NCBI GenBank assembly: GCA_963801165.1
Contig: CAWDDT010000004.1
Coordinates: 416,001 to 480,000 of the forward strand
Reading direction: 5' to 3'
From: an uncultured bacterium
GTDB taxonomy: Bacteria; Actinomycetota; Acidimicrobiia; Spongiisociales; UBA5794
DNA length: 64,000 nucleotides
Both the position numbers and the translations under genes were made by a program. The notes under the pieces are model-generated. The model was given only the letters and a program-made list of their open reading frames with translations. It was not told where the DNA came from and made no database searches. How positions within the stretch are numbered: position 1 is the first letter of the stretch; each line of letters starts with the position of its first letter. Positions 1 to 57,932 of the stretch are shown piece by piece.

Positions 1-793
1 CGTCGATGACTCCAGCATCGGTGATGGTGACAGCACCAAACGCTCCGGGGTCTGCCCCGGTCGAAGTCCACCCGTTGATCGGTTCCGCCGGGAGAGTTGT
101 CGTTGTTGTCGAGCCGGTCGACGGTGTTGGCGATTCGGCGAGGACTTCGCCGTCTCCGTTGAGGGCGGCGACGCTGGTGGGGAGGATGTCACCCGCCCAG
201 CAGTATTCGAAGAACTGCGCCGGGATTGCCTGTCCGTCGTAAATCGCCGTGTACACCAGGTCCCCGTCGGGGAACGTCACCACGACATCAGACACGCTGT
301 AATGGATCGCCCCGAAGACGCAGGACAGTGGCGGTTCAGCAAGATGGTCGGTTGTCATGAACGGTCCAGAGAGGGGAGCGTCGGTGCTCGGCTCCAGGCC
401 GCAGAGGGTGCCGTCCAACTCCATACAGATGGATCCGTTCTCATCGAAGTACGCGGTCAACAACCAGGACTCATCGGCACCGTCGTAAGATCCGTCGGCG
501 ATGACAAAGGTCGGTCCCCGGGTAACGGGCTCCTCGTCGACCTCGGCAGCGGATGTCGTGCTCGTTGTTGTCGATTCGGGAGGCGCGGTGGTGATGACGG
601 TGGGCGCTACCGGAGTAGGACCATCGGTGCGGGTTAGCCACAGCGCAGCACCACCCACGGTGATGGTCACCACCGCAGCGATCGCCAGCACCTTCAACCT
701 TCCCATCGTATGGGGAGGCTGCGGCACCGGGACCTGCTCGAGTTCAGAGTTGAGACGTGCTCCTGCCCGGCGTAGTTCATCGTCGAGACTCAT
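1..793 (-). CDS. Membrane-anchored putative anti-sigma factor, partial (runs off left edge; not in ORF track)
   Basis: Read by hand: MSLDDELRRAGARLNSELEQVPVPQPPHTMGRLKVLAIAAVVTITVGGAALW, then a Thr/Pro linker and an extracytoplasmic domain. ATGA overlap with the ECF sigma stop; N-terminus homologous to 56082..56882. Confidence 0.75.
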   Translation of the reverse strand, partial: MSLDDELRRAGARLNSELEQVPVPQPPHTMGRLKVLAIAAVVTITVGGAALWLTRTDGPTPVAPTVITTAPPESTTTSTTSAAEVDEEPVTRGPTFVIADGSYDGADESWLLTAYFDENGSICMELDGTLCGLEPSTDAPLSGPFMTTDHLAEPPLSCVFGAIHYSVSDVVVTFPDGDLVYTAIYDGQAIPAQFFEYCWAGDILPTSVAALNGDGEVLAESPTPSTGSTTTTTLPAEPINGWTSTGADPGAFGAVTITDAGVID

Positions 794-1338
794 GCCCGGT
801 CACCTCCCATCTCGAGACGTTTCGCCAGCGTCTGCTTGGCCCTACTCAGGTGGGTCTTGACCGTTTCCTCCGAACACCCCATTACCTCGGCTACCTCACG
901 ACGAGACAACCCATTCAGATATACCAACGCCACCGTCTGGGCCTGCCGGCGAGGCAGCCGGCGCACCTCCCGCCACAAATCAAGATCAGCCTCCACATCC
1001 AACCCCGGATAGTCACCCGGTGGCGACCCGAGTCGCATCAATGCTCTCGCCTGAGCCGCAGTCCGACGGAACCACGAAACCGAGCTGTTCGCCACGACGG
1101 TTCGCACCCACGCCCCCGGATTGTCCATTCCGCTCACCCGGTCCCATTGGTAAAGCGTGGTCAGGAATGCCTCTTGCACCAGCTCCTCAGCCACGGACCG
1201 GTTTCCCGATAGGACAATGGCCAGCCCCAGCACCTGGCGGTACTGGCGGCGATAGAACACCTCAAAGGTCTCCCTGGCCCTAACAACCGGCAGGTCATCC
1301 ACCAGACTCAACTCACCCCATGTCTGAATCGTTGCCAC
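790..1338 (-). CDS. ECF RNA polymerase sigma factor
   Basis: Region 2 (AEELVQEAF...AWVRTVVAN) and region 4 HTH (LPRRQ...GLSRREVAEVMGCSEETVKTHLSRA). Confidence 0.93.
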   Translation of the reverse strand: MATIQTWGELSLVDDLPVVRARETFEVFYRRQYRQVLGLAIVLSGNRSVAEELVQEAFLTTLYQWDRVSGMDNPGAWVRTVVANSSVSWFRRTAAQARALMRLGSPPGDYPGLDVEADLDLWREVRRLPRRQAQTVALVYLNGLSRREVAEVMGCSEETVKTHLSRAKQTLAKRLEMGGDRA

Positions 1339-1376
1339 ACCCAGTAAAACGCATCAGACCCACATTATGGGGGACA
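1339..1376 (-). promoter_or_regulatory. Putative autoregulatory ECF promoter
   Basis: TGTCCCCC-N16-GCGTTTTA-N6-GTG; same motif and spacing upstream of the paralog (57427..57464). Confidence 0.6.
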
Positions 1377-1655
1377 GCAACCCAATAAGGTCTAGAAAAG
1401 CTCTGCCGTCGCCCCCAACCAACGATCAACAGATCCCGCTCGACAAGCACTTCGCCGGGGCCGGGCTTCTTCATGGACGGATGTGCACAAGAGATTTCGA
1501 TCGGTTCATCAACGGCCGCAATGGTGCGTTGGCCCGCATTTGGTCCGCGAGAGGATGGAGAACGGTCACAAATGATGACAAATGCCGGAGGCTGAAAACG
1601 TCTACGACACAGAGCATTTCAGCGAATCGCCAGTGTCGCCGTTTACCCTCCGCAT

Positions 1656-1701
1656 TGATTTGTAATCAGCAGGTCATGGGTTCGAATCCCTTCGCCAGCT
1701 C
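1656..1701 (+). mobile_element. tRNA-Thr(UGU) 3' fragment, att junction of an element extending left
   Basis: TGATTTGTAATCAG anticodon arm, GGGTTCGAATCCC T arm and CGCCAGCT acceptor strand; no 5' strand or D arm upstream. Confidence 0.8.
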
Positions 1702-2430: not shown

Positions 2431-2694
2431 TCATCTTGGTCGGTAGACGTCACGGCGGTGCTGGATCCTGTGGATTAGGACGGTGTCGTCGTTCTCGAAG
2501 ATCTCGTAGATGATGCGGTAGTCACCGCGCCGTGCGGAGTGGAGTCCTTCGAGTTCGCCGAGTAGTGGCTTCCCGAGCCGCTGGGGATTCTCAGCGATAG
2601 GTCCGAAGATTGCCGCTAGGGCAGCGTTGCGGACTTTCTCGGGGAGCTGGTTGAGGTGGCGCAGACCCTCAGGTGTGATCTCGACTTCGTACAC
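2431..2694 (-). CDS. relE: RelE/ParE family toxin
   Basis: GKPLLGELEGLHSARRGDYRIIY...HRRDVYR; directly downstream of the antitoxin. Confidence 0.9.
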   Translation of the reverse strand: MYEVEITPEGLRHLNQLPEKVRNAALAAIFGPIAENPQRLGKPLLGELEGLHSARRGDYRIIYEIFENDDTVLIHRIQHRRDVYRPR

Positions 2695-2703
2695 GAAGTC
2701 ACC

Positions 2704-2958
2704 TCAGATGTGATCTGATAGGCGGAGTCGCTTGCCTTTGGCGGCTTCTCGTCTTGACCGTCGCAACGACTTCATCAGTTCGTCGTCTCTGAGGATGTCG
2801 AGTGACTCCTCGAGGGATTCGAGATCGTCGAGGCTCATGAGCACAAATGAGGGTCGGCCGTTGCGGGTCACCAAGATTCGGTCGTGTTCGACTTCGACCC
2901 GGTCGGCCAACTCAGAGAGATGTGCCTTGACTTCTGAGAAGGGGAGGGTGTCGCTCAT
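2704..2958 (-). CDS. Phd/YefM family antitoxin
   Basis: SEVKAHLSELADRV...ILVTRNGRP...LESLEESLDIL. Confidence 0.9.
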   Translation of the reverse strand: MSDTLPFSEVKAHLSELADRVEVEHDRILVTRNGRPSFVLMSLDDLESLEESLDILRDDELMKSLRRSRREAAKGKRLRLSDHI

Positions 2959-2968
2959 GCCCACCAGT

Positions 2969-13900: not shown

Positions 13901-16284
13901 GCGCGGGGGGAACCACCCTGAGCGACAGAGCGACCCGTCAGAGCGCGGCAGGTGTCGGTACGTCGGCATCTCGCCCCGACGGGATTCCGAAGGTCGATGG
14001 CTCATTCATCTACTCCTCCGACGAGTATCACGAGGGGTCGCTGTGGGGAGCCACCCTCCGTAGCCCCCATCCTCGGGCTCGCATCGTGTCGATCGACACC
14101 TCGGCCGCCGAAGGCGTTGACGGTGTTGCAGCGGTGTTGACGCATCAGGATGTGCCGGGATCGAAGACGTACGGAATGAAGATCTCGGATCAACCTGTCC
14201 TCGCTTTCGACGAGGCCCGGTACCAGGGCGAACCAGTTGCGCTGGTTGCAGCTACCCATCCCGATATCGCGCGCCGGGCCTGTGGTCTCATCGAGGTGCA
14301 ATACGAGGAGCTGATTCCGAATACGGATCCGGAGGCGTCCTTGACAGGCACCGTCGACGGTCTTCGCAACGGTGGTTTGGCCCGTCATGTGAAGATCCGT
14401 CATGGCGATGTGGCCGCGGCCCGTGACCATGCCGACGTGGTGATCGAGGCCCGGTATGAGCTCGGGACCCAGGACCCAGCGTTCCTCGGGCCGGAATCCG
14501 GTCTTGCCGTTCCGGTTGGCGACGGTGGCGTCGAACTCTACGTCTCTTGCCAGAACCTCCATCTCGATCAGAAGCAAGTCGCGGCGAGCCTCGGGTTGCC
14601 GTTGGAGAAGGTCCGACTCGTCCTCTCGGGGGTTGGGGGAGCGTTCGGTGGCAAAGAAGACCTGAATGTTCATATCCACGCCTGCATGCTCGCGCTGGCA
14701 ACCGGCCGACCAGTCCGCATGGTCTATAACCGCGAAGAGTCCTTCTTCGGGCACGTCCACAGGCATCCGGCGACCGCTACCGTGGAGCTGGGCGCGACAA
14801 ACGACGGGAGGCTGGTCTTCAGCAAAGTCCGGCTGGTTCTCGACGGTGGTGCGTATACCTCTACCTCAGAAATAGTGATTGCCAACGGCTCGTACTTTGC
14901 GGCCGGTGCCTATCGATGCCCCAACGTGGAGATCGATGGCTATGCGACGTACACCAACAACCCTCCGTGCGGTGCCATGCGTGGATTTGGTGCCGTGCAA
15001 TCTTGTTACGCGATCGAGTCAGCCATGGATCGTCTGGCTCGTGAACTCGGCCTGCACCCGCTGGACCTCCGGATGCGCAACGCAATCACCGCCGGTGACC
15101 TCCTCCCCACCGGTCAGCTCATCGATGGTCCAGCGCCGGTGCGGGAATTACTGATGTTCCTGCGCGACCTGCCTCTTCCAGAGGAACCTGCCGATGAGTT
15201 GTGCGACCTTCGATCCCGTCCCGGCGGTGTCGGCAACGTCACTCATGGCGAAGGCATCAAGCGCGGGATCGGCTATGCGCTCGGCATGAAGGCCATCGGG
15301 TTCTCCGGCGGAGTCGATGACACCTCGACGGCACAGGTCACGCTGTTGATTCACGACGGCGAGCCGATTGCCGAGGTGTACTGCGCAGCTGCAGAATTGG
15401 GTCAGGGCATCGTGACTCTCGAGACCCAGGTGGTCCGCACCGAGCTCGGAGTCAGCAAGGTCGTGCTGGCGGACAAAGACACCCTGATCGGCGAAGCCGG
15501 GGCATCGTCCGCCTCGCGCCAGAGCTGGATGAGCTGCGGTGCCGTGCTCGGAGCCTGCGAGTCGGTTCGTGAAGACCTATTGGAACGGGCCGCTGTGATG
15601 GTCGGCGAGCCCGCCGGGTTGTTGCGGTTTGACGGCATCGACATCTGTATGGCGGAAGACGGTCGACCCCTGATCAGCGCTGCTGAAGTTCTCGGTGAAG
15701 AGCCCGTCTCCCACACCTTCACCTATCACCACCGTCCCACCGAAGCGATCGACCAGGAGCGCGGGCAGGGCGACGCCCATATAGCCTTCGCCTATGCGGC
15801 CCATCGAGCGGTGGTGGACGTTGATGTCGAGCTCGGGTTGGTGCGTGTCGTAGAACTCGCCGTTGCTCAAGACGTCGGTCGGGCATTGAATCCCATCGCG
15901 GTCGAAGGGCAGATCGAGGGGGCATCGGTGCAAGGTCTCGGTCTGGCCGTCATGGAGGAGATACAGATCGACGAGGGCCATGTCCGCAATCCGTCTTTCA
16001 CCGACTACCTCATTCCGACGATGCTCGACGTTCCACCGATGCCGATGAAGGTGTTCGAGTTTCCCCACCCCGACTCGCCGTACGGGCTCAACGGAGTTGG
16101 CGAACCGTCCAGCTTGTCCTCGACTCCCGCAATTCTCAATGCTCTGCGTTCTGCCACAGGTCTTGACCTGCGGCGGGCACCTGTCCGACCGACCGATTTC
16201 CTATCAACCGATTTCCTATCAACCGATTTCCTATCAACCGATTTCCTATCAACCGATTTCCTATCAAAGGAGGAAACTGCATGA
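13897..16284 (+). CDS. XDH family molybdopterin-binding subunit (PucD-like)
   Basis: [33 protein letters not shown]. Confidence 0.93.
16192..16266 (+). repeat. Perfect tandem repeat, 5 x 15 bp (ACCGATTTCCTATCA)
   Basis: Read directly; encodes (TDFLS)5 at the Mo-subunit C-terminus and abuts the AAGGAGG RBS of the next gene. Confidence 0.97.
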
Positions 16285-46687: not shown

Positions 46688-46730
46688 GGCGTCCCGGGAG
46701 GATTCGAACCTCCGATACCCGGTTTAGGAA
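46688..46730 (-). mobile_element. tRNA-Arg(CCU) 3'-half fragment (att junction)
   Basis: Near-identical to 51404..51447; similarity ends in the anticodon loop. Confidence 0.85.
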
Positions 46731-46929
46731 CGTGTTGCAGCCGAATCCCTGGGTGCTCATGTAGGGCCACGAATAGCTGGGGGTTCCCATCCGAAATGTT
46801 GTCGATTCGCCCCATATTCATTGAGGAATCAACAACTTGGGTTGTTGTTCGGCGTGTCGAATTCGCTGGTTTCTCAGGCCTGCGAAGTGCCCAAGATTCT
46901 CCATGCCGGTTGCTGCGCGGCTACTCCTT

Positions 46930-47020
46930 CCATATTTTGAGACGCATCTCAACCCAGTGTTTGGGGATCAGCGCATCATTGACATTGCGCAACCGGCGGT
47001 TCAGAGCGTTGTTGCGGCTG
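46930..47020 (+). pseudogene. Tyrosine integrase core-binding domain remnant
   Basis: YFETHLNPVFGDQRIIDIAQPAVQSVV resembles the equivalent segment of the two other integrases here. Confidence 0.45.
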
Positions 47021-47188
47021 GGAGCGCCGAGCGCGCTCCTCAGACCCGATCGACAAAACGATTCTCTTGCGGGCAACGGTCAACGGATAGCGCACCCAGC
47101 GTGTGCCTTCGGGGTGGCTGCCTCGACAACCGGTCGCACGAACGACTTGAAACAACGGAGGGCGGTACCGCCGCACTCCCCTCCGATT

Positions 47189-47596
47189 TCAGCCCCACAC
47201 GAGCACGAGGATGGCTGCGACCACTACGAACAGTGTCGAGTACTCCATCCCCCATAGGGCTACCGGTGACCCGTCGCCGATGATGAACACCAGACCGGCG
47301 AGGGTGGCCGCGATGGTCGCGGCCGCCGTCACCCCGGTGGCGACACGCCGGCGGGTGTCGGGGAGCCGCAGCGTGTAGACGAAGCTTCCGGTGCTGAGCC
47401 CCACCAACAGGAGGCCGATTGCGATGTGAAGCCCGAGGTCCCGGTGGCCGAACGGGGGACCGCTCATCAGGGCGGATCCGAGAAGACCCTCCCACACCAC
47501 GAGGATGAGGATCACGAGCGCCAGGATCCTGAGCACTGTGTTCTTCTGCCGGCGGACGTTCACGCCGGTGGGCTGTGCGGATTGGTGCTCGGTCAT
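47189..47596 (-). CDS. Small 4-TM membrane protein
   Basis: Four hydrophobic segments; ATGA-coupled to the TetR gene. Confidence 0.65.
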   Translation of the reverse strand: MTEHQSAQPTGVNVRRQKNTVLRILALVILILVVWEGLLGSALMSGPPFGHRDLGLHIAIGLLLVGLSTGSFVYTLRLPDTRRRVATGVTAAATIAATLAGLVFIIGDGSPVALWGMEYSTLFVVVAAILVLVWG

Positions 47597-48222
47597 GGGA
47601 ATGGTCCTTTCGTCGCGTCGGCCCGGATAGGCAAGTCGATGCCGAGGATCCGCCACACGGAACGGGTGAGCGCATGTAGCGCATCGTCAGGGCTCATTCG
47701 CCCGCCTCCGACTTCGTTTGCGGCCGCGTGGGTCAGACTCATGAGCGCGGCCACGATCCAGTTGGCTGAGAGGCGGGGGTCGAAGTCGCCGGTGCGTTGG
47801 CCCCGTTGGATCAGCGGCACCAGCCGATCGAGGATCGGGCCATGCCCCGTCTGCTCCTCCTCGGGTCGCATCGGGAGCGTCGGCAGCGTGAATACCCGGT
47901 TCTCGATGGAAGTATCCCAATTGGTTTCGATGAATCGCTGCAGCGCAGCGGCGGGAGGACCTTCATTTAGCGTGGCGCGGTCCAGCGCCGTGATCGCTCG
48001 GTTCAACGTGCGCGTCAAAACGGCACGGATCAGCTCGTCTCTCGAGGGGTAATGGGAGTAGACGGTTTGTCGAGCCAAACCTGCGGCTCGAGCGATGTCT
48101 TCGATGGTTGCGTCGGGCCGCTCGCCAAGCGTCTCGGCGGCGGCATCGAGAATCGACTCCATGTTGCGCTCGGCGTCCGCACGGAGCCGGCGAGCTGGCG
48201 TATGTGATGTGTTCGAGGACAT
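47593..48222 (-). CDS. TetR family regulator
   Basis: RADAERN...IARAAGLARQTVYSHYPSRDEL. Confidence 0.92.
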   Translation of the reverse strand: MSSNTSHTPARRLRADAERNMESILDAAAETLGERPDATIEDIARAAGLARQTVYSHYPSRDELIRAVLTRTLNRAITALDRATLNEGPPAAALQRFIETNWDTSIENRVFTLPTLPMRPEEEQTGHGPILDRLVPLIQRGQRTGDFDPRLSANWIVAALMSLTHAAANEVGGGRMSPDDALHALTRSVWRILGIDLPIRADATKGPFP

Positions 48223-48423
48223 GAGTGTCTATGTTAACAGCGTGATGTGTCATTCTAGCGAGCAAATTCGAGTTAACTACGACAGCCTCGTCTAAGTTAT
48301 CGTCGACCATGATCGAAGCGTGGCCGGGACCGTCGTCACTCGAGATACAAGATGGGATTGACCTTTCGACTCCCTCCGCGATTCCCGACCGATATTCCAC
48401 CGACGCAGATCTCCAGTGTTTTC

Positions 48424-48492
48424 AGCGCCCGGGAGGATTCGAACCGCCTTCACCGTCTTGGGAGACCGGTTCGCGTAGGTTTAGGAAACCGG
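48424..48492 (-). mobile_element. Two adjacent tRNA-derived att relics
   Basis: GGTTTAGGAAACCGG (48478..48492) plus a diverged 3' half containing CCCGGGAGGATTCGAACC. Confidence 0.7.
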
Positions 48493-48686
48493 CCAGGACA
48501 CTTTCCGGTGTCTCTCGTCGATTGTCGTCTTCTGCGAGATCGTCAATGTTTACGGGGGATTCCCACCGATTCGCTGAATGCGGCCTTTGCGTCGTTTTGT
48601 GTCGTTTCTCGACCTGTGACGGACCGTTGAAGCGAGATTTGCTGATAGGGGTTCAATCGGTCTCTCGTTACATGTAACATCAGAGC

Positions 48687-48908
48687 ATGGCTACACCCCA
48701 AGAGAGGTCTTCCGTCTCGAATCGAGTACGCAACTACCGCAAGCGGATGCGGGCACAAGGAATGCGGCCAATCCAGATCTGGGTGGCGGACGTCCGCTCT
48801 CCGGACTTCGCTGCTGAAGCACACCGCCAGGCCGCGGCCGTCGCCAACAGCAAGCACGCCGCCGACGATCAGGCATTCATCGATGCGCTCAGTGTCGACG
48901 ACAAGTGA
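48687..48908 (+). CDS. MazE-like antitoxin (DUF3018-like)
   Basis: RVRNYRKRMRAQGMRPIQIWVADVRSP.F..EAHRQ; GTTACATGTAAC palindrome upstream. Confidence 0.88.
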   Translation: MATPQERSSVSNRVRNYRKRMRAQGMRPIQIWVADVRSPDFAAEAHRQAAAVANSKHAADDQAFIDALSVDDK

Positions 48909-49237
48909 GACGCTCCGAGGTCTGGACGGCCGCAGCCGGGACTGGCTACAGCGGCAAACCGCGGCTCGTCGTGATCATTCAGGACGACCGGTTTGATGCC
49001 ACCGACTCGGTGACGGTGTGCGCTTTCACCACTGACCCGACAGAGGCGCCGCTGATCCGTCTCCCCGTTGTGCCCGATGAGCAGAACGGTCTTCGCGAGA
49101 CAAGCAGTCTCATGGTCGACAAGATCACAACCGTTCCCCGATCCAAGCTTGGTGAACGAATCGGCCGCCTAGCCGACCAAGACATGCTTAGGCTCGGGCG
49201 TGCCGTCGTGGTGTTCTTCGGACTGGCAGGCGACTGA
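48905..49237 (+). CDS. mazF: PemK/MazF family toxin
   Basis: GKPRLVVIIQDD, NGL..S.LMVDKITTV...LGERIG. Confidence 0.92.
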   Translation: MRRSEVWTAAAGTGYSGKPRLVVIIQDDRFDATDSVTVCAFTTDPTEAPLIRLPVVPDEQNGLRETSSLMVDKITTVPRSKLGERIGRLADQDMLRLGRAVVVFFGLAGD

Positions 49238-49361
49238 CCACTCCAACCATGGCGTGAAGCCCTGCAAACGCGATACAGGATGTCAACGGTCAGTGTTCGC
49301 CCAGCAAGCGGATACGTGAGGATCTCGCTCACTCGAGAAACTGATCGTTATCACCCGATAT

Positions 49362-50206
49362 TTGTTGTATGTGCTTCCTCGCTTTGCTCGGGCATCCCTG
49401 GGGAGCATTCAGGCCGTTGACATCCGGGAGTGGTTGGCAGACCTCGATCGTTCGGGTCTGTCGGCGTCGCGAATCCGGCAGGCGTACTTCCTGCTGGCGC
49501 AGATTCTCCGCTCGGCCGTCGAGTCCGGTCATCTGGCGAAGGACCCGTGTGTCGTGGTGAAGCTTCCGCGCATGCAGGTACCCGAGATGCGATTCCTGTC
49601 CGTGGAACAGGTCGAGGCGCTGGCTTCAGCCATTCGTGAACCGTATGGTGTCCTTGTCAACACCGTTGCCTACGGCGGTCTGCGATGGGGCGAGGCGGTA
49701 GCCCTGGACGGGAACGATGTGAGCTGCTGCGTTCCCGGGTCCATGTGGCGGAATCGCTCTCCGAGACCTCCGAAGGGCTTCTATTCGGTGCCACAAAGAC
49801 ATATCAGCGCCGAACGGTGGTGATACCGGGATTCCTCCGGGATCAACTGGCGGAGCATCTGGCGACTCGCGTCGAAATCGCCGAGGATGCACTCGTCTTC
49901 ACCTCCCCAGGCGGCGAGCCCTTGCGCCGAGGCAACTTCAGCCGGCGGGTGTGGAAGCCCGTGCTCGCGGCAGCGCGTCTTGACGTTCGGCCGCACGAAC
50001 TCCGCCATACCTGTGCCGCGCTGCTCATCGCCGAGGGGGCGCATCCCAAGGCGGTGCAGGCTCAGCTCGGACACTCGTCGATCCAGGTCACTATGGATCG
50101 GTACGGGCATCTGTTTCCCTCTGCCGCTGAGGAGCTCGCTGGTCGTCTGGATGCTGTGCATCGACGGAAGCAGACGCTCGAGACTCCGGGGATTTCTATT
50201 GCATGA
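49362..50206 (+). pseudogene. Tyrosine integrase, N-truncated and frameshifted (~49710)
   Basis: GGLRWGE, then a frame change; HELRHT, LGHSS, TMDRYGH. Confidence 0.85.
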
Positions 50207-50247
50207 AAGAAACAAGTGTTCGATTTATGACGGGTGTTTGTTATCAT

Positions 50248-50877
50248 ATGGACATGGATTTCGTTCGACCCGTTGAGGCAATCGTTCCCGGTGTCCAGGG
50301 CCGGGTTCTGTCCGTGCTGGCGGAGACAACTGCCGACCTCAACATGAGGACGATCGCTCGTCTCGCTGATGTCAGTCTGGCGCAAGCCTCGCGCGTGCTG
50401 GCGCGGTTGGTCGACCTTGGCGTTGTGGAGCGGCGTGACGTGCCTCCTTCGTCACTCTTTCGTCTGGTTCGCCAGCATGTGGCCGCGGGTCCGTTGCTTG
50501 CTTTGGCGAGAGGCCGGGATGCGTTGATAGGCGAGATGGGGCGCCTCGCGGCCGGGCTCCCTGTGGTGCCCTTGTCGGCGATTGTCTTCGGATCCTTTGC
50601 GCGAGGCGAGGCAGATATCGACAGCGACATCGACATGGTGCTCGTCCGCCCCGCGGGTGTCGATGAGTCCGACGAGTCGTGGTGGGAGGCGGTCGAGCAG
50701 TGGCGGACTTCGGTGCGCCGGGCTAGTGGCAACCGGGTTGAAGTCCTCGAGGTTGGCTCCGACGAGGTCGCAGCGTTGCTGAACAGCCGGCGGCAGGTAT
50801 GGCGTGACATTCGGCGCGATGGCCTGGTCGTGCACGGCCTGAGCCTCGCCGATCTCAAGGATGGATCACGTGGCTAG
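50248..50877 (+). CDS. HTH plus minimal nucleotidyltransferase (MNT antitoxin)
   Basis: N-terminal HTH; FGSFARGEADIDSDIDM. Confidence 0.88.
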   Translation: MDMDFVRPVEAIVPGVQGRVLSVLAETTADLNMRTIARLADVSLAQASRVLARLVDLGVVERRDVPPSSLFRLVRQHVAAGPLLALARGRDALIGEMGRLAAGLPVVPLSAIVFGSFARGEADIDSDIDMVLVRPAGVDESDESWWEAVEQWRTSVRRASGNRVEVLEVGSDEVAALLNSRRQVWRDIRRDGLVVHGLSLADLKDGSRG

Positions 50878-51276
50878 GAGCGGGCGAACCCGGTCCGTCA
50901 CGGCGAGTCAAGCGCGGCGGTATCTGGCGAAGGCCGAGGAGTACGTTGAGGCGCATCCAGCGAACTCGACGCTCAACGGGGCATCGCTGCGACGGGTCTG
51001 GCCATCCATGCCGCGATCAACGCTGCCGATGCCGTGTGCGGTGTCCGCCTCGGGGAGCGAGCCGTCGGCGAGGATCACGATGAGGTGCTCGTACTGCTGA
51101 AGACGGCCGGCAAGGATGGTGTCGAAGTTGAGAAAGAGCTTCGACGGCTACTTCCGTTGAAGACCAAGGCTGAGTACGACCCCGACAATGTCTCGCTCCC
51201 GACGGCATCAAAGGCAGTTGCGCGAGCGCAAAGATTCGTCGCAGTCGCTCGACGTGTCGTGGCGTCGCTGAGGTGA
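50870..51276 (+). CDS. HEPN-domain protein (frameshift ~50953)
   Basis: YLAKAEEY, AIHAAINAADA, GEDH, LKTKAEY; paired with the MNT gene. Confidence 0.75.
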
Positions 51277-51405
51277 TTCGCGGCTTGTCGGCGGCGGCTT
51301 CCAACGAACTCTGACGGACACTAGACGGACAGTACGGGCTCTAAGCGTCGCTGTGGGCATCGCCCGAAATGCCGATATCCGTTCTCACACAGCGAATACC
51401 TGAGG

Positions 51406-51478
51406 CGCCCCCGGGAGGATTCGAACCTCCGACACCCGGTTTAGGAAACCGGTGCTCTATCCCCTGAGCTACGAGGGC
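51406..51478 (-). tRNA. tRNA-Arg(CCU)
   Basis: Full 73-nt cloverleaf GCCCTCG-TAGCTCAGGGGATAGAGCA-CCGGT TTCCTAA ACCGG-GTGTC-GGAGG TTCGAAT CCTCC-CGGGGGC-G; CCA not encoded. Confidence 0.97.
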
Positions 51479-51484
51479 GAAATA

Positions 51485-52633
51485 TCAAGAATAGCCCGAA
51501 AAATCAGCCTTTCCGGAGTCCTCGGGTAGGGCAACAATGTTGTCAGATGTGCGCTTGGGCCGCACCTGGGCCGCACTGTAACGAGCATCCATCGATTCTG
51601 CGAGGCTATCGAGGTCGTCTTCGAACAGATGAGCGTACCGATCGAGAGTGATCTGCGCCGACGAATGGCCCAGCATTCTTTGCACCGCTTTCACGCTCGC
51701 GCCGGCCGAGATCGCCAGACTTGCCGCCGTGTGTCGCAAGTCGTGGGGCACGAGATCGCCAAGCCCGAGGTCGGCCACTGCAGGCTTCCACACCCTCCGC
51801 AAGAAGTTCGGGGAACGGAGAGGTTGACCGGTCGACGATGCGAACACGAGATCGCCGCCGGCGAGCGTAGGAGCCAACTCGTCCATCAGAAACCTCGGGA
51901 TCACAATCGTTCGGGACCGATGCGACTTCGGAGTGCCCCAGACGAGCTTGCCGTTGACCAGGGTGGCCGATTCCCTCACATAAACCCGGTGCCGCAAGAC
52001 ATCCACGTTGTCCGACCTGAGCGCCACCGCTTCGCCCCAGCGCAGGCCACCGTAGGCGAGGAGCTTGACCAGCTGGGCACCTCCACGCATCCTCTGCTCC
52101 ACCGCATCGGCCAGCTCGGTCACCTGCGTCGCGGTCAGATACCGTTGGTCCCGTTCGGCCGTCTTGGGCACTTTCACCGTCTCTGCCGGATTCCGCCCGA
52201 TGAGGCCGTCATCCACTGCTTGCGTCAGCACCGCGGAGACGACCCGTTTCGCCTGGCCCATCCGCGACGCCGAAAGCCCGTCCGCGGCCATAGCGGCGAC
52301 CCACGCCCTGAGGAAGTCCGGGTTGATCCGTCTCAGTTCGACGGAACCCAGCGCAGGCAAGATCCGTGAATCGAGCAACGAGCGGTAGCCGGCGATTGTC
52401 TTTGGCTTGAGGACGAGGCCTTGAAACCATTCCTCGGCATAGTCTTCGAATCGAACGGCGCCGGCACTCGGGTCAACCCACAGACCGCGGTCCTGCTTCT
52501 GGAGCTCGTCGCGCAGCCATCGCTCGGCATCGACCTTGCGGTCGAACGCCCTCGAGTGTTCCCGCCCGTCAGGGCCCCGGTACCCAGCCCGCCACGGTGT
52601 GGGTCGATCAGGTCGTTTGCGAATCCATCCCAT
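51485..52633 (-). CDS. Tyrosine integrase
   Basis: Arm-binding N-terminus (WRAGYRGPDG..SRAF); catalytic motifs GLRWGE, PKS, HDLRH, LGH, DRY. Confidence 0.95.
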   Translation of the reverse strand: MGWIRKRPDRPTPWRAGYRGPDGREHSRAFDRKVDAERWLRDELQKQDRGLWVDPSAGAVRFEDYAEEWFQGLVLKPKTIAGYRSLLDSRILPALGSVELRRINPDFLRAWVAAMAADGLSASRMGQAKRVVSAVLTQAVDDGLIGRNPAETVKVPKTAERDQRYLTATQVTELADAVEQRMRGGAQLVKLLAYGGLRWGEAVALRSDNVDVLRHRVYVRESATLVNGKLVWGTPKSHRSRTIVIPRFLMDELAPTLAGGDLVFASSTGQPLRSPNFLRRVWKPAVADLGLGDLVPHDLRHTAASLAISAGASVKAVQRMLGHSSAQITLDRYAHLFEDDLDSLAESMDARYSAAQVRPKRTSDNIVALPEDSGKADFSGYS

Positions 52634-52689: not shown

Positions 52690-52878
52690 TCATCGGTCGG
52701 CCCTCTTCTGGTTCTCGATCCACTCCGCGACGTCGGTCCACTGGTAGCGGATGTGCCTTCCCACACGGAACCCACGTGGTCCTTCCCGGCGATACCTCCA
52801 CTGATACAGCGTCGTCGCCGGAACGCCGAGATAAGCGGCGAGGTCGTGCACGGTGAGCAGCCGGTCGCGAGGTGTCAT
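52690..52878 (-). CDS. Excisionase-like HTH protein
   Basis: LLTVHDLAAYLGVPATTLYQWR...GP...VGRHIRY. Confidence 0.9.
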   Translation of the reverse strand: MTPRDRLLTVHDLAAYLGVPATTLYQWRYRREGPRGFRVGRHIRYQWTDVAEWIENQKRADR

Positions 52879-53230: not shown

Positions 53231-55975
53231 GTGTTGAGTCTGGCGAAGGCGGTCAAGGACTACTACCTGCAGAAGCTGGGTGAGATCTCACCACGGGAGG
53301 ACTACTACCTACGGGGCGGTACGGCGACCGGTCGTTGGTGCGGCTCGGGAGCCGCCGAACTCGGTCTCACGGGTGCCGTGTCGGCGGAGGGTTTGGTGCG
53401 GCTGTTTGACGGGAACCATCCCGACACGGGCGAACAGCTGGGTCGCCGTCTCCGTGAAGACGGGGTGGCGGCGTGGGATGTGACCTTCTCGGCGGACAAA
53501 TCGGTGTCGCTGTTGTGGGCGTTGGGTGACGAACTGACCCGCAAGGAAGTCGTCGAGGCGTTCGAGGAAGCAACGTCACAAGCATTCGAGTATCTGGAGT
53601 CGGTAGCCTCATTCACTCGCGGCGCCACCAAGACACCGATCACCGACGAGAACGGGAACCCGGTCCGTGGCCCGAATGGTCGGCTGAGGTATCGGGTGGA
53701 GACCTGGCCGATAGCGACATCGGGGTATGTGGCGGCGGCGTTCACCGAGTACACGTCACGGGCCGACGACCCACAACTGCACACCCATGTCGTCGTTGCC
53801 AACAAGGTCAAAGGCGCCGATGGGGTGTGGCGCACCATCGACGGCCGCCTGTTGTATCGGCATCAGCTCGCCGCCGGCTACCTGCACGAGGCGGTACTAC
53901 GTCGCGAGTTGACCCAGCGGTTGGGGGTGCGGTGGCAGCCGATACACCACGGTGTCGCCGACATTGCCGGGTTCACCCTTGGCCAGATCGAGGCGTTCTC
54001 GCAGCGGCGCCGACAACTCGAAACCTGGCGACAGGAAGAGAGTCTTCCGGATACGGCGGCGGCGCGGCAGGTAGCGGTGATCGCTACCCGCACCGCCAAG
54101 ACCAACCGCTCTCTCGACGAGCTGGAAGAGGTCTGGCAGCGACGAGCCGTAGAGGTCGGTCTCACCCCAGAGAGGATCGGTCGGATTGTCAATCGGAGCA
54201 TGGAGGTCACGTCACCCGACCGTGAAGCACTGTTTGCGGACCTGGCATCACCAGACGGGCTCACCGCACACAAGTCGACATTCGCCGTACCAGAGGTCAT
54301 CCAACATGTCGCCGCTGCACTCCCCGAGGGAGGCACCCGGACCGAGATCGAAGCCCTCGCCGACACATTCCTGAAGGGCAGCGACATCATTCCGCTCCTC
54401 CCCAGCCCGCAACTCGAACCCCCAGCTCAAGCCGGAACGAACTCGCTTGCCGAGCCGAACGGCCGACAGCTCGTCGATGAGGCACGGGTGCCTGTGATGC
54501 GTACCCGTCGCGGTGAACCGTTCCCCGCACCGACCCTGCCCAGCTACACCACCGCCGAGCTCCTGGCCACCGGGCAGCGGATCGTCGACTACGCAATGGC
54601 CGGCGTCGGTCAGGGTCGTTGGCAGGCACCGCACCGGCTCGTTGAAACGTGGCTACGCAACAGACCGGAACTCACCGACGGGCAACGCCAGATTGTGCGC
54701 AGCTTCGCAACCTCCGGCAACACCGTCGATATCGGTATCGGTCCTGCCGGCAGTGGCAAGACCGCCGTTGTCGCCGTCGTCAACCAACTCGCCCAACTCA
54801 CCAGACGACCCATCATCGGAGCTGCCCTCGCCGCTCGCACCGCATCCGGCCTCCAAACCGACACCGGCGTCCCCTCCACCACCCTCGCCCGACTCCTCAG
54901 CCGAGCCCAACACGGATCCAGTCTTCCTACCGGTGTGGTGGTGGTCGTCGACGAAGCTGGCATGGTCGGCACCCGGCAGCTCGCTGCCGTCGTCGATCTT
55001 GTCGACCAAGCAGATGGCAAACTGGTCCTGGTCGGGGATGACAAGCAACTCCCCGAGATCGACGCCGGCGGTCTGTTCCGTGCCCTCGCCATGAGGCTGC
55101 CAGCCGTCGAACTCACCGACAATGTGCGTCAGCAGGCGGCCTGGGAACGCCAAGCACTCGACGAGCTCCGCAACGGATCCGTACAACAGGCAATGCAGGC
55201 CTATGTCGAGCATCGGCGTCTCGTCCTCGGCCGCAACCGTACCGATGCGGTCACCAGAGCCTGTGCTGACTGGTATCGGTACGTCCGGTCATCCGGCGAG
55301 ATAGGTTCGGCGCTGCTCATCGCCCACGACAACGACACCGTCACCCAACTCAACGAAAAGGCACGACAGCACCTCGCCGCCTCCGGGCACCTCCACGGAC
55401 CCACACACCAAGCGGCAGGCATCGTGCTCCAGGCTGGTGACCGGATCCTCTGCCGCCGAAACCGATATGAGCTCGATGTCCTCAACGGCGACCTCGGCAC
55501 CATCACCGTCGTAGACCAGGATGCGGGAACGGTCACCGTCCGTCTCGACCGAGACCCCGAAACCCGAGAGCTACCGGACTGGTATCTCAACGACGCGAAA
55601 GTCGGCTACGGATACGCCCTCACCGCCCACAAAGCCCAAGGCATCACAACCGGGCGCACCTTCACCGTCATCACCGGAACCACCGACCGGGAATGGGCCT
55701 ACGTCGCCCTCAGCAGAGGCCGCAACGCCAACACCCTCTACCTCGCATCTCCCGAACCCGGCCACCAGGAATGCTCCCACCTCACCCACCAGACACGGCA
55801 GCAGAGAGCTGATGCTCCTTGTGCATTCCTCACCCGCAGCAGGGCACAGATCGCGGCTACCGACAGAGAAGAACCGCGAGGGGCAGGTCTCTTCGTTGTT
55901 GTTGGCCACGACGGGGCAACCTGTGCGCGCCGGTTGACACAGTCCCGCCCAGGGTTGCCGGTCTTCGGTTGGTAG
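53231..55975 (+). CDS. MOBF (TrwC-like) relaxase-helicase
   Basis: DYY twice, DVTFSADKSVS, TSRADDPQLHTH; SF1 motifs GPAGSGKT, DEAGM, GDDKQL, HKAQG, YVALSRGR. Confidence 0.93.
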   Translation: MLSLAKAVKDYYLQKLGEISPREDYYLRGGTATGRWCGSGAAELGLTGAVSAEGLVRLFDGNHPDTGEQLGRRLREDGVAAWDVTFSADKSVSLLWALGDELTRKEVVEAFEEATSQAFEYLESVASFTRGATKTPITDENGNPVRGPNGRLRYRVETWPIATSGYVAAAFTEYTSRADDPQLHTHVVVANKVKGADGVWRTIDGRLLYRHQLAAGYLHEAVLRRELTQRLGVRWQPIHHGVADIAGFTLGQIEAFSQRRRQLETWRQEESLPDTAAARQVAVIATRTAKTNRSLDELEEVWQRRAVEVGLTPERIGRIVNRSMEVTSPDREALFADLASPDGLTAHKSTFAVPEVIQHVAAALPEGGTRTEIEALADTFLKGSDIIPLLPSPQLEPPAQAGTNSLAEPNGRQLVDEARVPVMRTRRGEPFPAPTLPSYTTAELLATGQRIVDYAMAGVGQGRWQAPHRLVETWLRNRPELTDGQRQIVRSFATSGNTVDIGIGPAGSGKTAVVAVVNQLAQLTRRPIIGAALAARTASGLQTDTGVPSTTLARLLSRAQHGSSLPTGVVVVVDEAGMVGTRQLAAVVDLVDQADGKLVLVGDDKQLPEIDAGGLFRALAMRLPAVELTDNVRQQAAWERQALDELRNGSVQQAMQAYVEHRRLVLGRNRTDAVTRACADWYRYVRSSGEIGSALLIAHDNDTVTQLNEKARQHLAASGHLHGPTHQAAGIVLQAGDRILCRRNRYELDVLNGDLGTITVVDQDAGTVTVRLDRDPETRELPDWYLNDAKVGYGYALTAHKAQGITTGRTFTVITGTTDREWAYVALSRGRNANTLYLASPEPGHQECSHLTHQTRQQRADAPCAFLTRSRAQIAATDREEPRGAGLFVVVGHDGATCARRLTQSRPGLPVFGW

Positions 55976-56081
55976 GCGACGTGGCAAGGTTGATGGCGCG
56001 CTGAGGTGTGCTCGAGCACCGGTGCCACCGTGCCATGTGCGACACTGACGTCGGTCGACGCTTGGCACCGGCGGGTGCCTG

Positions 56082-56882
56082 CTATTGGTCGGTGAGGACG
56101 CAGAGCGCGAACGGGTAACCGTCGATGAGTTCGGCGGGTCCGAGGACGTCCGGGCAACGGTGGGTCCACTCGTCGATCGTGTCCTCGTAGCCGGGTGGTG
56201 CAGGGCCGTTGTTGACCATACCCCAGGAGGTCCAGAGACGTTGTGAACAGCTGAAACCACCGTCGGCGGTCGCGACGTCTATGCCGCCGTCTTCGGTATA
56301 GACGGTGAAGTTCATCGTGGCAGCCAGTTCGTCGGCGATACCGCTTGTCGAGACGATCAGCGAGCGGAGCACGAAGCTTTCGTCGCGGCTGGCCCGATCC
56401 GTCAGGTAAGCGGCCAGAGTGGCCCTGTCGAACGACTCGGGTTGGATTCGGGGCTGGCTGTCACCTGTGATGGAGAAGAACAGGAACCCGCTCTCCGCGA
56501 TCTGGCTCTCGGCGGCGGCCGGATCCGAGGTCAAGTCTGACAGGAGCCGCTGCGACGATTCAGCCACCGTAGTGGCATCACATTCGCTCGACGCAGGAGC
56601 GGCTGAGACCGGTGCCGACGTGGTGACGACAGTCGTGTTGGCCGACATTGTGGTCGCGGTCGGTCCAGTCGTGGTGGTCGCAGATGTGGCGCCTGCGGAT
56701 CGAGGCAGCTCAGCCGTGTGCGTAATCCAGAGCATCGAGCCAACGAGCGCGACTGTCACGAACGCGGCAAGTGCGAATACCTTCAACCGTCCTCTCGCAT
56801 GGGGTGGCTGCGGTACCGGTACATCCTCGAGCCGTGCGTTGAGACGAGATCCCGCCCGAAGTAGTTCATCGTCGAGGCTCAT
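56082..56882 (-). CDS. Membrane-anchored putative anti-sigma factor
   Basis: Short cytoplasmic N-terminus, one TM, Thr-rich linker, Cys-containing outer domain; overlaps the sigma gene end. Confidence 0.75.
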   Translation of the reverse strand: MSLDDELLRAGSRLNARLEDVPVPQPPHARGRLKVFALAAFVTVALVGSMLWITHTAELPRSAGATSATTTTGPTATTMSANTTVVTTSAPVSAAPASSECDATTVAESSQRLLSDLTSDPAAAESQIAESGFLFFSITGDSQPRIQPESFDRATLAAYLTDRASRDESFVLRSLIVSTSGIADELAATMNFTVYTEDGGIDVATADGGFSCSQRLWTSWGMVNNGPAPPGYEDTIDEWTHRCPDVLGPAELIDGYPFALCVLTDQ

Positions 56883-57426
56883 CCTCGTTACCTCCTATTC
56901 CGAGACGCTTCGCCAATGTCTGCTTGGCGCGGCTGAGATGGGTCTTGACTGTTTCGTCGGAACAACCCAACACCTCGGCCACTTCTCGCCGAGACATTCC
57001 GCCCAGATACACGAGTGCCACTGCCTGCGCCTGTCGGTGAGGCAACCGCCGAACCTCACGCCATAGGTCAAGCCGGGCTTCAATGTCCAGCCCTGGATAG
57101 CTCGTGGGCGTGGAAGCGAGACGTAGCAGTGCACGAGCCCGGGACCTAGCTCGACGCAACCACGAAACCGAGCTGTTCGTCACCACCGTTCGTACCCACG
57201 CACCCGGATTATCCATCTGACACACCCTGTGCCAATTGCGGAGCGTCGCCACAAACGCTTCCTGCGCCAACTCTTCGGCCACGGCTTGGTCGCCCGAGAG
57301 CACGATTGCCAGCCCCAGCACCTGGCGGTACTGGCGGCGATAAAACGTCTCGAAACTCTCGCTAGCTCTCACCAGCGGCAGGTCATTCACCCGACTCAAC
57401 TCACTCCATGTCCGAATCGTTGCCAC
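56866..57426 (-). CDS. ECF RNA polymerase sigma factor (paralog of 790..1338)
   Basis: Regions 2 and 4 present; colinear and highly similar to the left copy. Confidence 0.93.
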   Translation of the reverse strand: MATIRTWSELSRVNDLPLVRASESFETFYRRQYRQVLGLAIVLSGDQAVAEELAQEAFVATLRNWHRVCQMDNPGAWVRTVVTNSSVSWLRRARSRARALLRLASTPTSYPGLDIEARLDLWREVRRLPHRQAQAVALVYLGGMSRREVAEVLGCSDETVKTHLSRAKQTLAKRLGIGGNEDEPRR

Positions 57427-57776
57427 GCCTAATAAAACGCATCAGCGACATCATTTGGGGGACATCATCGCGAAAGAAGGCCAGAAGCCGGCTTGCGGGA
57501 TCTGCTACCGCTGCGCCACCTACAGGCGATGCACCCAATGACCGGGCTAGCTACCCAACACACCGCGCCAGTTCGTCGGCCAGTAGCATCTCTCCGCTGC
57601 GGGCTTGGGCCGCACCTGGGCCGCAACGGACGTGAGAACATGAGAAATGATGAAAGACGATGAGAGGCGAAATCGCCCGGAAAATCAGGCTTTCCGCCGG
57701 TTTGCCCTGGTAGACAAAGACCCCCAAAACGGTTTAGGAAACCGGTGCTCTATCCCCTGAGCTACGAGGGCGAAAT

Positions 57777-57932
57777 GTCAAGAATAGCCCGAAAAATCAG
57801 CCTTTCCGGGATCCACGGGCAGGTCCACAACATCGTCGGATATGCCCCTGGGCCGCACCATAACGAGCATCCATCGACTCTGCTAGGCAATCCAGGCCAC
57901 CTTCGAACAGGTGTGCCAACCGACCTAGAGTG
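57777..57932 (-). pseudogene. C-terminal remnant of a related integrase
   Basis: LGRLAHLFEGGLDCLAESMDARYGAAQ versus LDRYAHLFEDDLDSLAESMDARYSAAQ; DNA colinear with ~51484..51650. Confidence 0.85.

Follow-up and report, generated by a model that had tools for sequence, protein, structure and literature searches.

Extracytoplasmic function (ECF) sigma factor pairs, integrative and mobilizable elements (IMEs), and islands seated in tRNA genes are all known kinds of system. CnrYXH of Cupriavidus pMOL28 joins an ECF sigma factor to a short membrane anti-sigma factor on a mobile replicon and controls metal-resistance genes linked to it. In the type whose nearest solved members are SigW-RsiW of Bacillus subtilis (PDB 5wuq) and Mycobacterium tuberculosis SigE, a sigma factor with the domains r2 and r4_2 is followed by an overlapping gene for a type II single-pass membrane protein, whose cytoplasmic N-terminus lies between the sigma-2 and sigma-4 domains and whose outer domain varies. 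IMEs bring together a tyrosine integrase, an excisionase, a relaxase of their own, a tRNA site, flanking direct repeats, and a variable cargo slot, and have no mating-pore or coupling genes. Islander-type tRNA islands (PMC4383910) leave a regenerated tRNA gene and a displaced fragment in the same orientation, with the crossover in the anticodon loop. Here, we describe a two-gene ECF cassette that occurs twice, each time in a tRNA island, within 64,000 nucleotides (the window; G000:C4:416001-480000, on contig CAWDDT010000004.1) of the genome of an uncultured member of the Acidimicrobiia (G000; 4.55 Mb in 13 contigs, 98% complete).

The cassette consists of an ECF sigma gene and a downstream gene for a partner protein with one transmembrane (TM) helix. 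We consider it likely that it is a self-contained operon with its own promoter, that the partner is a probable anti-sigma factor, and that the unit is ordinary, portable island cargo. In gene order, sigma domains, overlapping single-pass partner, predicted placement of the cytoplasmic N-terminus, and variable outer domain, the pair resembles the SigW-RsiW type; unlike that type, its cytoplasmic part is about 29 residues long and contains no anti-sigma domain described in Pfam, NCBIfam, or the PDB. Set beside the described systems, the variant features of this locus are the minimal anti-sigma head, the exchange with lipoprotein domains, and the presence of MOBF islands in this class. A literature search turned up no publication that treats ECF pairs as cargo of islands and none that deals with Acidimicrobiia elements, which is not proof of absence.

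Two copies of an ECF sigma cassette

The following features make up the two copies.

2..793, minus strand: partner 1, of whose 587 residues the window covers the first 264 and not the beta-propeller part, which is encoded to its left
790..1338, minus strand: ECF sigma factor 1, 182 amino acids; its stop overlaps the partner 1 start by 4 nt
1348..1376, minus strand: promoter-like motif of copy 1, TGTCCCCCA-N14-TGCGTT, ending about 10 nt ahead of the GTG start; upstream edge of the cassette
56082..56882, minus strand: partner 2, 266 amino acids; N-terminal module and TM helix as in partner 1, and behind them a Cys-containing sensor domain that is unrelated
56866..57426, minus strand: ECF sigma factor 2, 186 amino acids; 17-nt overlap with partner 2
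57436..57464, minus strand: promoter-like motif of copy 2, TGTCCCCCA-N14-TGCGTT conserved

The two sigma factors are colinear and align without gaps, with 139 of 180 positions identical (77%), which bears out the duplication 56 kb apart proposed in a first-pass annotation of this DNA. Both match Sigma70_r2 (PF04542) and Sigma70_r4_2 (PF08281) above the cut-offs and have the size and layout of ECF (group IV) factors, with sigma-2 and sigma-4 domains only in about 180 to 200 residues; for TIGR02937, with its cut-off of 42.9 bits, the scores were 67.7 and 76. The overlaps of 4 and 17 nt between the sigma and partner genes would be consistent with co-translation. Each copy lies, as had also been proposed, about 300 bp inside an attachment (att) junction and is read away from it: the tRNA fragment that marks the junction is 318 bp from the start of sigma 1 in copy 1 and 304 bp from the start of sigma 2 (repeat 57730-57771) in copy 2. 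The window start cuts copy 1, so that the annotation had seen a shortened partner 1; the whole gene (G000:C4:415030-416793) encodes 587 amino acids.

Shared head and exchanged outer domains in the partner proteins

Partners 1 and 2 have residues 1 to 56 in common, with 38 of 56 identical (68%; E = 6e-24), and past residue 56 a comparison of the two found no significant similarity. The picture of some 50 common N-terminal residues followed by unrelated outer domains in the first-pass annotation was thus accurate. Partner 1 begins with a predicted sigma-binding module (residues ~1 to 29), followed by a TM helix (~33 to 55), a Thr-rich linker, and a first extracytoplasmic domain. Its C-terminal 350 residues model confidently as a beta-propeller (pLDDT of 90.9), and the structures that resemble it most are those of Ycf48, kelch proteins, sortilin, and a Streptomyces protease-autolysis inducer; PF25852 is listed for homologues of the propeller. 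Among the 120 best homologues of the partner 1 domain, sorted by a heuristic, 40 are lipoproteins, 39 have a TM helix after at least 25 residues, 5 carry this N-terminal motif, 4 have a signal or TM helix at the N-terminus, and 32 are other proteins. A search of 5.8 billion proteins with the outer domain of partner 2 found three relatives, namely, partner 2 itself, the orthologue P0003, in which the domain again follows the shared N-terminus, and P0002, in which the domain (87%) follows a lipoprotein signal in place of that N-terminus. A fold model of this domain, built on an alignment of 3 rows, was unusable (pLDDT of 39).

The N-terminal module was followed through a wider set of proteins. 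A word-index search with its profile returned the input rows, P0003, and P0004 only, and an exhaustive search, used instead, gave 39 representative clusters of proteins of 85 to 983 amino acids, with the module at residue 1 in 36. The residues ahead of the TM helix are conserved across these 36 clusters, and everything beyond the helix varies. Single linkage sorted 39 such proteins into 14 C-terminal clusters, and the few outer domains with a Pfam name are kelch, META, BNR, and DUF6174. The swapped sensor domain of the first-pass annotation is upheld, and swapping is a trait of the whole protein family, not a peculiarity of the mobile copies. In both the lipoproteins and the partners a Thr-rich linker stands right behind the membrane signal, and it is the likely seam at which sensors are exchanged.

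Predicted binding of the partner to the sigma factor

Sigma 2 was modeled in complex with residues 1 to 60 of partner 2 from our own alignments (10 sigma rows and 8 partner rows). The runs scored 0.77, 0.76, and 0.77, the best of three controls scored 0.00, at least 71% of contacts recur between the runs, and the partner pLDDT is at least 64. The mark applied is reached by 116 of 157 solved complexes and by 2 of 215 mismatched pairs, rates that hold approximately here, own alignments having been used. Predicted contacts connect partner residues 1 to 29 with sigma residues 25 to 62 and 116 to 178, i.e., with both sigma domains. The result is not recall of a homologous partner, because the N-terminal profile had no relative among the solved chains (the best PDB match, at E = 0.11, covers TM segments only). 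The model supports binding of partner residues 1 to 29 between the sigma-2 and sigma-4 domains, and on this basis the pair looks like an ECF sigma factor with a single-pass anti-sigma factor; the controlled prediction (0.77 against 0.00) lends support to the co-transcribed single-pass anti-sigma factor that had been claimed at first.

Alternatively, the downstream protein could be no anti-sigma factor but a membrane or secreted protein that is co-transcribed with the sigma factor and is its target, and the shared N-terminus a mere membrane-insertion signal. The lack of a match to any described anti-sigma domain, a cytoplasmic part of just ~30 residues, and the occurrence of the same outer domains as plain lipoproteins would all suit such a protein. 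We nonetheless regard this as improbable, given that the complex prediction passes against three controls with the partner sandwiched between sigma-2 and sigma-4, and that the residues ahead of the TM helix are kept over 36 clusters while the rest varies. A signal anchor would not need such conservation.

The 6.3-kb element at tRNA-Arg(CCT)

Copy 2 is carried by a complete element with the following parts.

51404..51478, minus strand: intact tRNA-Arg(CCT), its 5' 42 nt supplied by the 6.3-kb element
51485..52633, minus strand: tyrosine integrase (PF00589, 81.8 bits), reading towards the tRNA; a longer open reading frame (ORF) to 52885 overlaps the excisionase gene in another frame
52690..52878, minus strand: excisionase-type HTH_17 protein, 62 amino acids
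53231..55975, plus strand: MOBF (TrwC-type) relaxase-helicase, 914 amino acids (TrwC, 257.7 bits; NF041492, 232 bits against a cut-off of 100)
57597..57729, minus strand: distal arm, 92% identical, junction included, to the sister element in genome G047
57730..57771, minus strand: displaced 5' part of tRNA-Arg(CCT), 42 nt at 100%; far junction of the element
57778..57932, minus strand: integrase C-terminus remnant, 82 to 89% identical to 51485-51650

Exact direct repeats of 42 nt (51437-51478 and 57730-57771) flank the element, and the tRNA-Arg copy stops in the anticodon loop. Because the far junction is a copy of the 5' part of the tRNA, the element replaces the 5' half of its target. The integrase remnant beyond the junction belongs to the target flank, since it is also present in G047. 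Between the repeats stand the integrase, the excisionase, a divergent relaxase, partner 2, and sigma 2 only, and ORF and domain scans agree with the earlier statement that the sigma/partner pair is the sole cargo. With a recombinase and flanking direct repeats at its target, a relaxase of its own, and no mating-pore or coupling gene within it, the element has the makeup of an IME. It differs from the known IMEs in that its relaxase is MOBF: according to a 2017 review (PMC5704250), no canonical IME encoding MobF was then known, and one IME was known in Actinobacteria. The region between excisionase and relaxase held no notable inverted repeats, and an origin of transfer was not identified in the element.

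Regenerated tRNA, same-orientation fragment, and anticodon-loop crossover are as in the Islander-type islands, and the element departs from the 3' case of that type in that the 5' half is displaced, a new 5' half is supplied, and the integrase gene lies directly upstream. Displacement of the 5' half is probably the less common configuration. This geometry is already known, because the Islander filters (PMC4383910) accept a 5' fragment upstream of a tRNA gene.

Parts of the element are present in marsh, salt-marsh, and soil metagenomes. With 5 differences, a contig of 2282 nt from run X1 spans 55123-57404, from the end of the relaxase gene through partner 2 to sigma 2. In the RNA-library run X24, two contigs are identical to parts of sigma 2 and partner 2, which is a weak hint of expression because DNA may occur in RNA libraries; stretches left uncovered in that run carry no meaning.

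Two observations may be added on the surroundings of the element. A decayed second island occupies the 3' side of the same tRNA-Arg(CCT) (window 46693-51447, with the displaced 3' half at 46693-46730). It contains genes for a TetR regulator, a MazE/MazF pair, an integrase split in two ORFs (49362-50206), and a MarR-nucleotidyltransferase fusion, and, set against G047, the ends of the added DNA do not coincide precisely with the att repeats. The source genome as a whole has 14 TrwC-domain matches, corresponding to about 9 relaxase genes.

The 9.7-kb island at tRNA-Thr(TGT)

Copy 1 lies at the distal end of a second island, of which the window holds two landmarks besides the cassette.

1528..1600, minus strand: arm box, 72 nt with similarity to 57604-57675; both stand equally far from their att core (55 to 56 nt)
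1656..1701, plus strand: displaced 3' part of tRNA-Thr(TGT), 46 nt at 100% (tRNA positions 30-75); far junction of the 9.7-kb island

The intact tRNA-Thr(TGT) (C4:407989-408065) and a convergent tyrosine integrase lie 9.7 kb leftward, outside the window. From there the island comprises broken IS3- and IS30-type transposase genes and SEC-C, Fic, and VanZ ORFs, followed by partner 1 and sigma 1; no relaxase was found in it. The arm-box similarity scored 33, against 18 ± 2.6 for shuffled sequences, and 0 of 300 shuffles reached 33. The last 320 bp of the two focal islands are colinear through core, arm box, promoter, and sigma gene.

The cassette outside islands

Copies of the cassette also stand apart from islands. 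In G048, a genome of the same genus, the copy 1 cassette (sigma 90.6% identical; 89% nucleotide identity across 2312 bp) has a membrane-protein gene on one side and mdh-icd-folD on the other. In contig C11 of the source genome, 12 bp separate these neighbors. No integrase, relaxase, or tRNA occurs within 10 kb of the G048 cassette. The partner 1 copy in G048 (L129 7974-9740) is divided among four ORFs (107, 209, 138, and 112 amino acids), from decay of the gene or from assembly errors. The metagenome contig L139 holds the cassette in a third context. The source genome itself has a third copy outside the window:

C4:502514-502690: third cassette copy, motif intact; the sigma gene is a 46-codon remnant (C4:502514-502651)

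No integrase was found near L139 or near this remnant, and no tRNA fragments beside the non-island copies (one 13-nt chance match). The remnant adjoins an ORF that by eye resembles a PIN-type toxin, amid metabolic genes, with no integrase within 4 kb. In the sigma tree, the G048 copy falls beside sigma 1 and the L139 copy beside sigma 2, within a clade of 100/100 support; at least two shifts between island and non-island contexts, in one direction or the other, must therefore be assumed.

A wider survey pointed the same way. Relatives of this integrase or relaxase were found at 0 of 80 homologous loci in species genomes (29 to 52% identity, many on short contigs) and at 0 of 10 loci from a family search, which matched 76 of 133 genomes and in which context was read at the 10 best loci. 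Of 80 metagenome loci, L139 was the sole close one (75 to 80%) and the one examined. The first-pass annotation had allowed that homologous pairs lying mostly in stable chromosomal surroundings would speak against its proposal of a family of elements carrying this cassette, and these homologues lie mostly where neither integrase nor relaxase was found, the closest being the G048 copy between housekeeping genes.

ECF pairs as recurrent island cargo

A sister of the 6.3-kb element in G047 uses the same tRNA, and its integrase, excisionase, and relaxase are 97.7, 96.8, and 84.7% identical at the protein level; it also has the 133-bp distal arm, the tRNA 5' half, and the integrase remnant (92%). 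Its 8.8-kb cargo is wholly different and encodes secreted proteins, another ECF sigma factor together with its TM partner, and a PIN protein paired with a ribbon-helix-helix protein. The cassette does not define the elements, and in this sister an integrase 98% identical goes with a different ECF pair. Three more islands of the source genome have relaxases 62 to 84% identical to that of the 6.3-kb element, beside integrases with other tRNA targets, and the sister islands with 82 to 84% identical relaxases hold other pairs of ECF sigma factor and TM partner.

The displaced 5' half of tRNA-Arg(CCT) is common in the genus, recurring in 9 of 15 genomes, and 3' halves occur in several (G038-G050 among those covered). 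A 5'-side island with an ECF pair is present in the source genome, G047, G042, and, with a pseudogene, G045; the remaining five carriers of the 5' half have short contigs or lie outside the Pfam scan. In G042 (L235 1816-4268), the 5' half and the intact tRNA-Arg(CCT) enclose an ECF sigma factor (163 amino acids) and a 477-amino-acid TM partner, nothing else and in particular no integrase, and this pair may be an integrase-less, cis-mobilizable remnant. The arms of the G042 and G045 elements have no similarity to the arm of the 6.3-kb element. Islands of this lineage use both sides of the anticodon loop, and ECF sigma pairs are a recurrent cargo of theirs. At tRNA-Arg(ACG) (G000:C9:5545-18450), a 5' copy lies upstream and 3' copies lie downstream.

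One alternative is that the tRNA-integrating elements are specialized carriers of ECF cartridges, which feed new sensors into one promoter class. In its favor, 9 of 52 Sigma70_r4_2 matches in the source genome fall inside 12 tRNA islands with att boundaries, which together cover 3.67% of its length (binomial P = 1e-4), or 7 of 50 without the two focal copies (P = 0.002), and ECF pairs recur in the sister islands and in the tRNA-Arg(CCT) islands of G047, G042, and G045. Between the two focal islands, arm box and promoter are colinear. Furthermore, the stretches that are near-identical between sigma 1 and sigma 2 are regions 2.4 and 4.2, which we take to be the readers of the -10 and -35 boxes; cross-reading of promoters by the two is plausible for this reason, and, with the common upstream motif added, they could share one promoter class. 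Against specialized carriage, the enrichment counts are not independent (three matches share one island), and the focal sigma factors are 30 to 54% identical to the other island sigma factors, which belong to different ECF subgroups, so that the island sigma factors as a set do not form a single promoter class. This cassette is missing from the G047 sister element; neither the nearest relative of sigma 1, in G048, nor that of sigma 2, in L139, is linked to an att site; the surveyed loci gave 0 of 80 and 0 of 10 with an integrase or relaxase; and the islands gather all sorts of accessory genes, among them Fic, VanZ, lipoproteins, and toxin-antitoxin pairs. On balance, specialized carriage strikes us as rather unlikely.

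Promoter motif and search for targets

About 45 bp upstream of the sigma start are kept in five of five copies (copies 1 and 2, the C4 remnant, G048, and L139), and in all of them homology ends there. The strict motif has 3 matches in the 4.55-Mb genome, all at sigma copies. Within the window, with up to 3 mismatches allowed, it occurs at the two sigma genes only and not upstream of the integrase, excisionase, or relaxase. Targets in the chromosome or among the transfer genes of the element, as envisaged in the first-pass annotation, did not emerge from either the genome-wide or the window scan. Its view of the cassettes as signal-input cartridges that feed one promoter class holds in part: sensors are swapped, the motif is common to the copies, and ECF pairs recur as cargo, but the cassette is not bound to islands and no targets were found. 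In contrast to CnrYXH, no target genes are linked to the pair here, and motif scans found no regulon.

Sigma-like regulators encoded by other mobile elements are known, and the 6.3-kb element has no genes beyond the pair and those for integrase, excisionase, and relaxase. Together these could suggest that the pair regulates the element itself by switching excision or transfer genes on an outside signal. The lack of the motif, with up to 3 mismatches, upstream of those three genes argues otherwise, as do the same cassette standing as a unit outside any element in G048, the copy 1 island without a relaxase, and the near-identical integrases that accompany unrelated sigma factors. We judge self-regulation to be highly improbable.

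A model for the cassette

We propose that the single-pass partner probably holds the two-domain ECF sigma factor at the membrane, with its first 29 residues (a helix and a PxPxPP stretch) predicted to sit between sigma-2 and sigma-4. Release of the sigma factor would follow a signal received by the outer domain, which would be a Ycf48-like beta-propeller in partner 1 and a disulfide-type domain in partner 2. Once freed, the sigma factor would transcribe from its own promoter (TGTCCCCCA-N14-TGCGTT), with an mRNA that is probably leaderless, and would read a further regulon. The module of ~56 residues (sigma-binding stretch plus TM helix) is joined to many outer domains that are also found as free lipoproteins. 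The two island copies in the source genome occupy the cargo slot beside the distal arm, and the third, truncated copy and the closest foreign copies stand apart from such islands.

Several results weigh against this picture of an anti-sigma-controlled operon on portable, ordinary cargo. Pfam and NCBIfam scans returned 0 families for either partner and no described anti-sigma domain. The best NCBIfam match of the sigma factors, the SigE family of the Streptomyces type (TIGR02983), stays under its cut-off (125.3 and 131.0 against 141.55 bits). The binding is read from model confidence, and the general type of sigma/anti-sigma complex is known to the model. Conservation of the promoter motif is weak proof of function because the five copies are related by descent, and a relaxed motif gave 18 genome matches against 16 to 42 in five permuted controls, and no regulon emerged. 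No read or contig in the sample contigs joins across the 6.3-kb element, and the 98% complete source genome has no match to the coupling-protein family PF02534 and none above the cut-off for PF12846; mobility is accordingly read from the repeats and gene set. Finally, the colinear distal 320 bp agree better with a cassette that is linked to the att arm than with cargo picked up purely by chance. With these points counted, we still hold the operon with a probable anti-sigma partner, carried as ordinary portable cargo, to be the likely reading.

If it is correct, the cassette is a compact, promoter-bearing sigma/anti-sigma unit whose sigma-binding part, at ~29 residues, falls outside the described anti-sigma families. 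It would also offer natural examples of new sensors born by the joining of a short module to lipoprotein domains, and small MOBF islands of a poorly studied actinobacterial class would repeatedly carry such regulators. This bears on the horizontal spread of regulatory inputs, beyond that of enzymes or resistance genes. Current views of ECF signaling and tRNA islands are not overturned, and the case is a fairly ordinary one. We speculate further that the small integrase/excisionase/MOBF islands, on either side of the anticodon loop, serve as both shuttle and mixing ground for ECF modules, with a slot beside the distal arm that prefers promoter-bearing sigma/anti-sigma cassettes, a 29-residue module that recombines with lipoprotein domains, and sensors that, once acquired horizontally, connect to promoters already resident, sigma factors 1 and 2 reading each other's promoters; this extended scheme we think unlikely to hold.

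Other features of the window

Just beyond the tRNA-Thr junction (window 2431-2964, minus strand), two small overlapping ORFs by eye resemble a RelE/ParE-type toxin and a Phd/YefM-type antitoxin. Further along, a 15-nt unit, CCGATTTCCTATCAA, is repeated six times in tandem (window 16169-16282) just upstream of an AGGAGG-like site.

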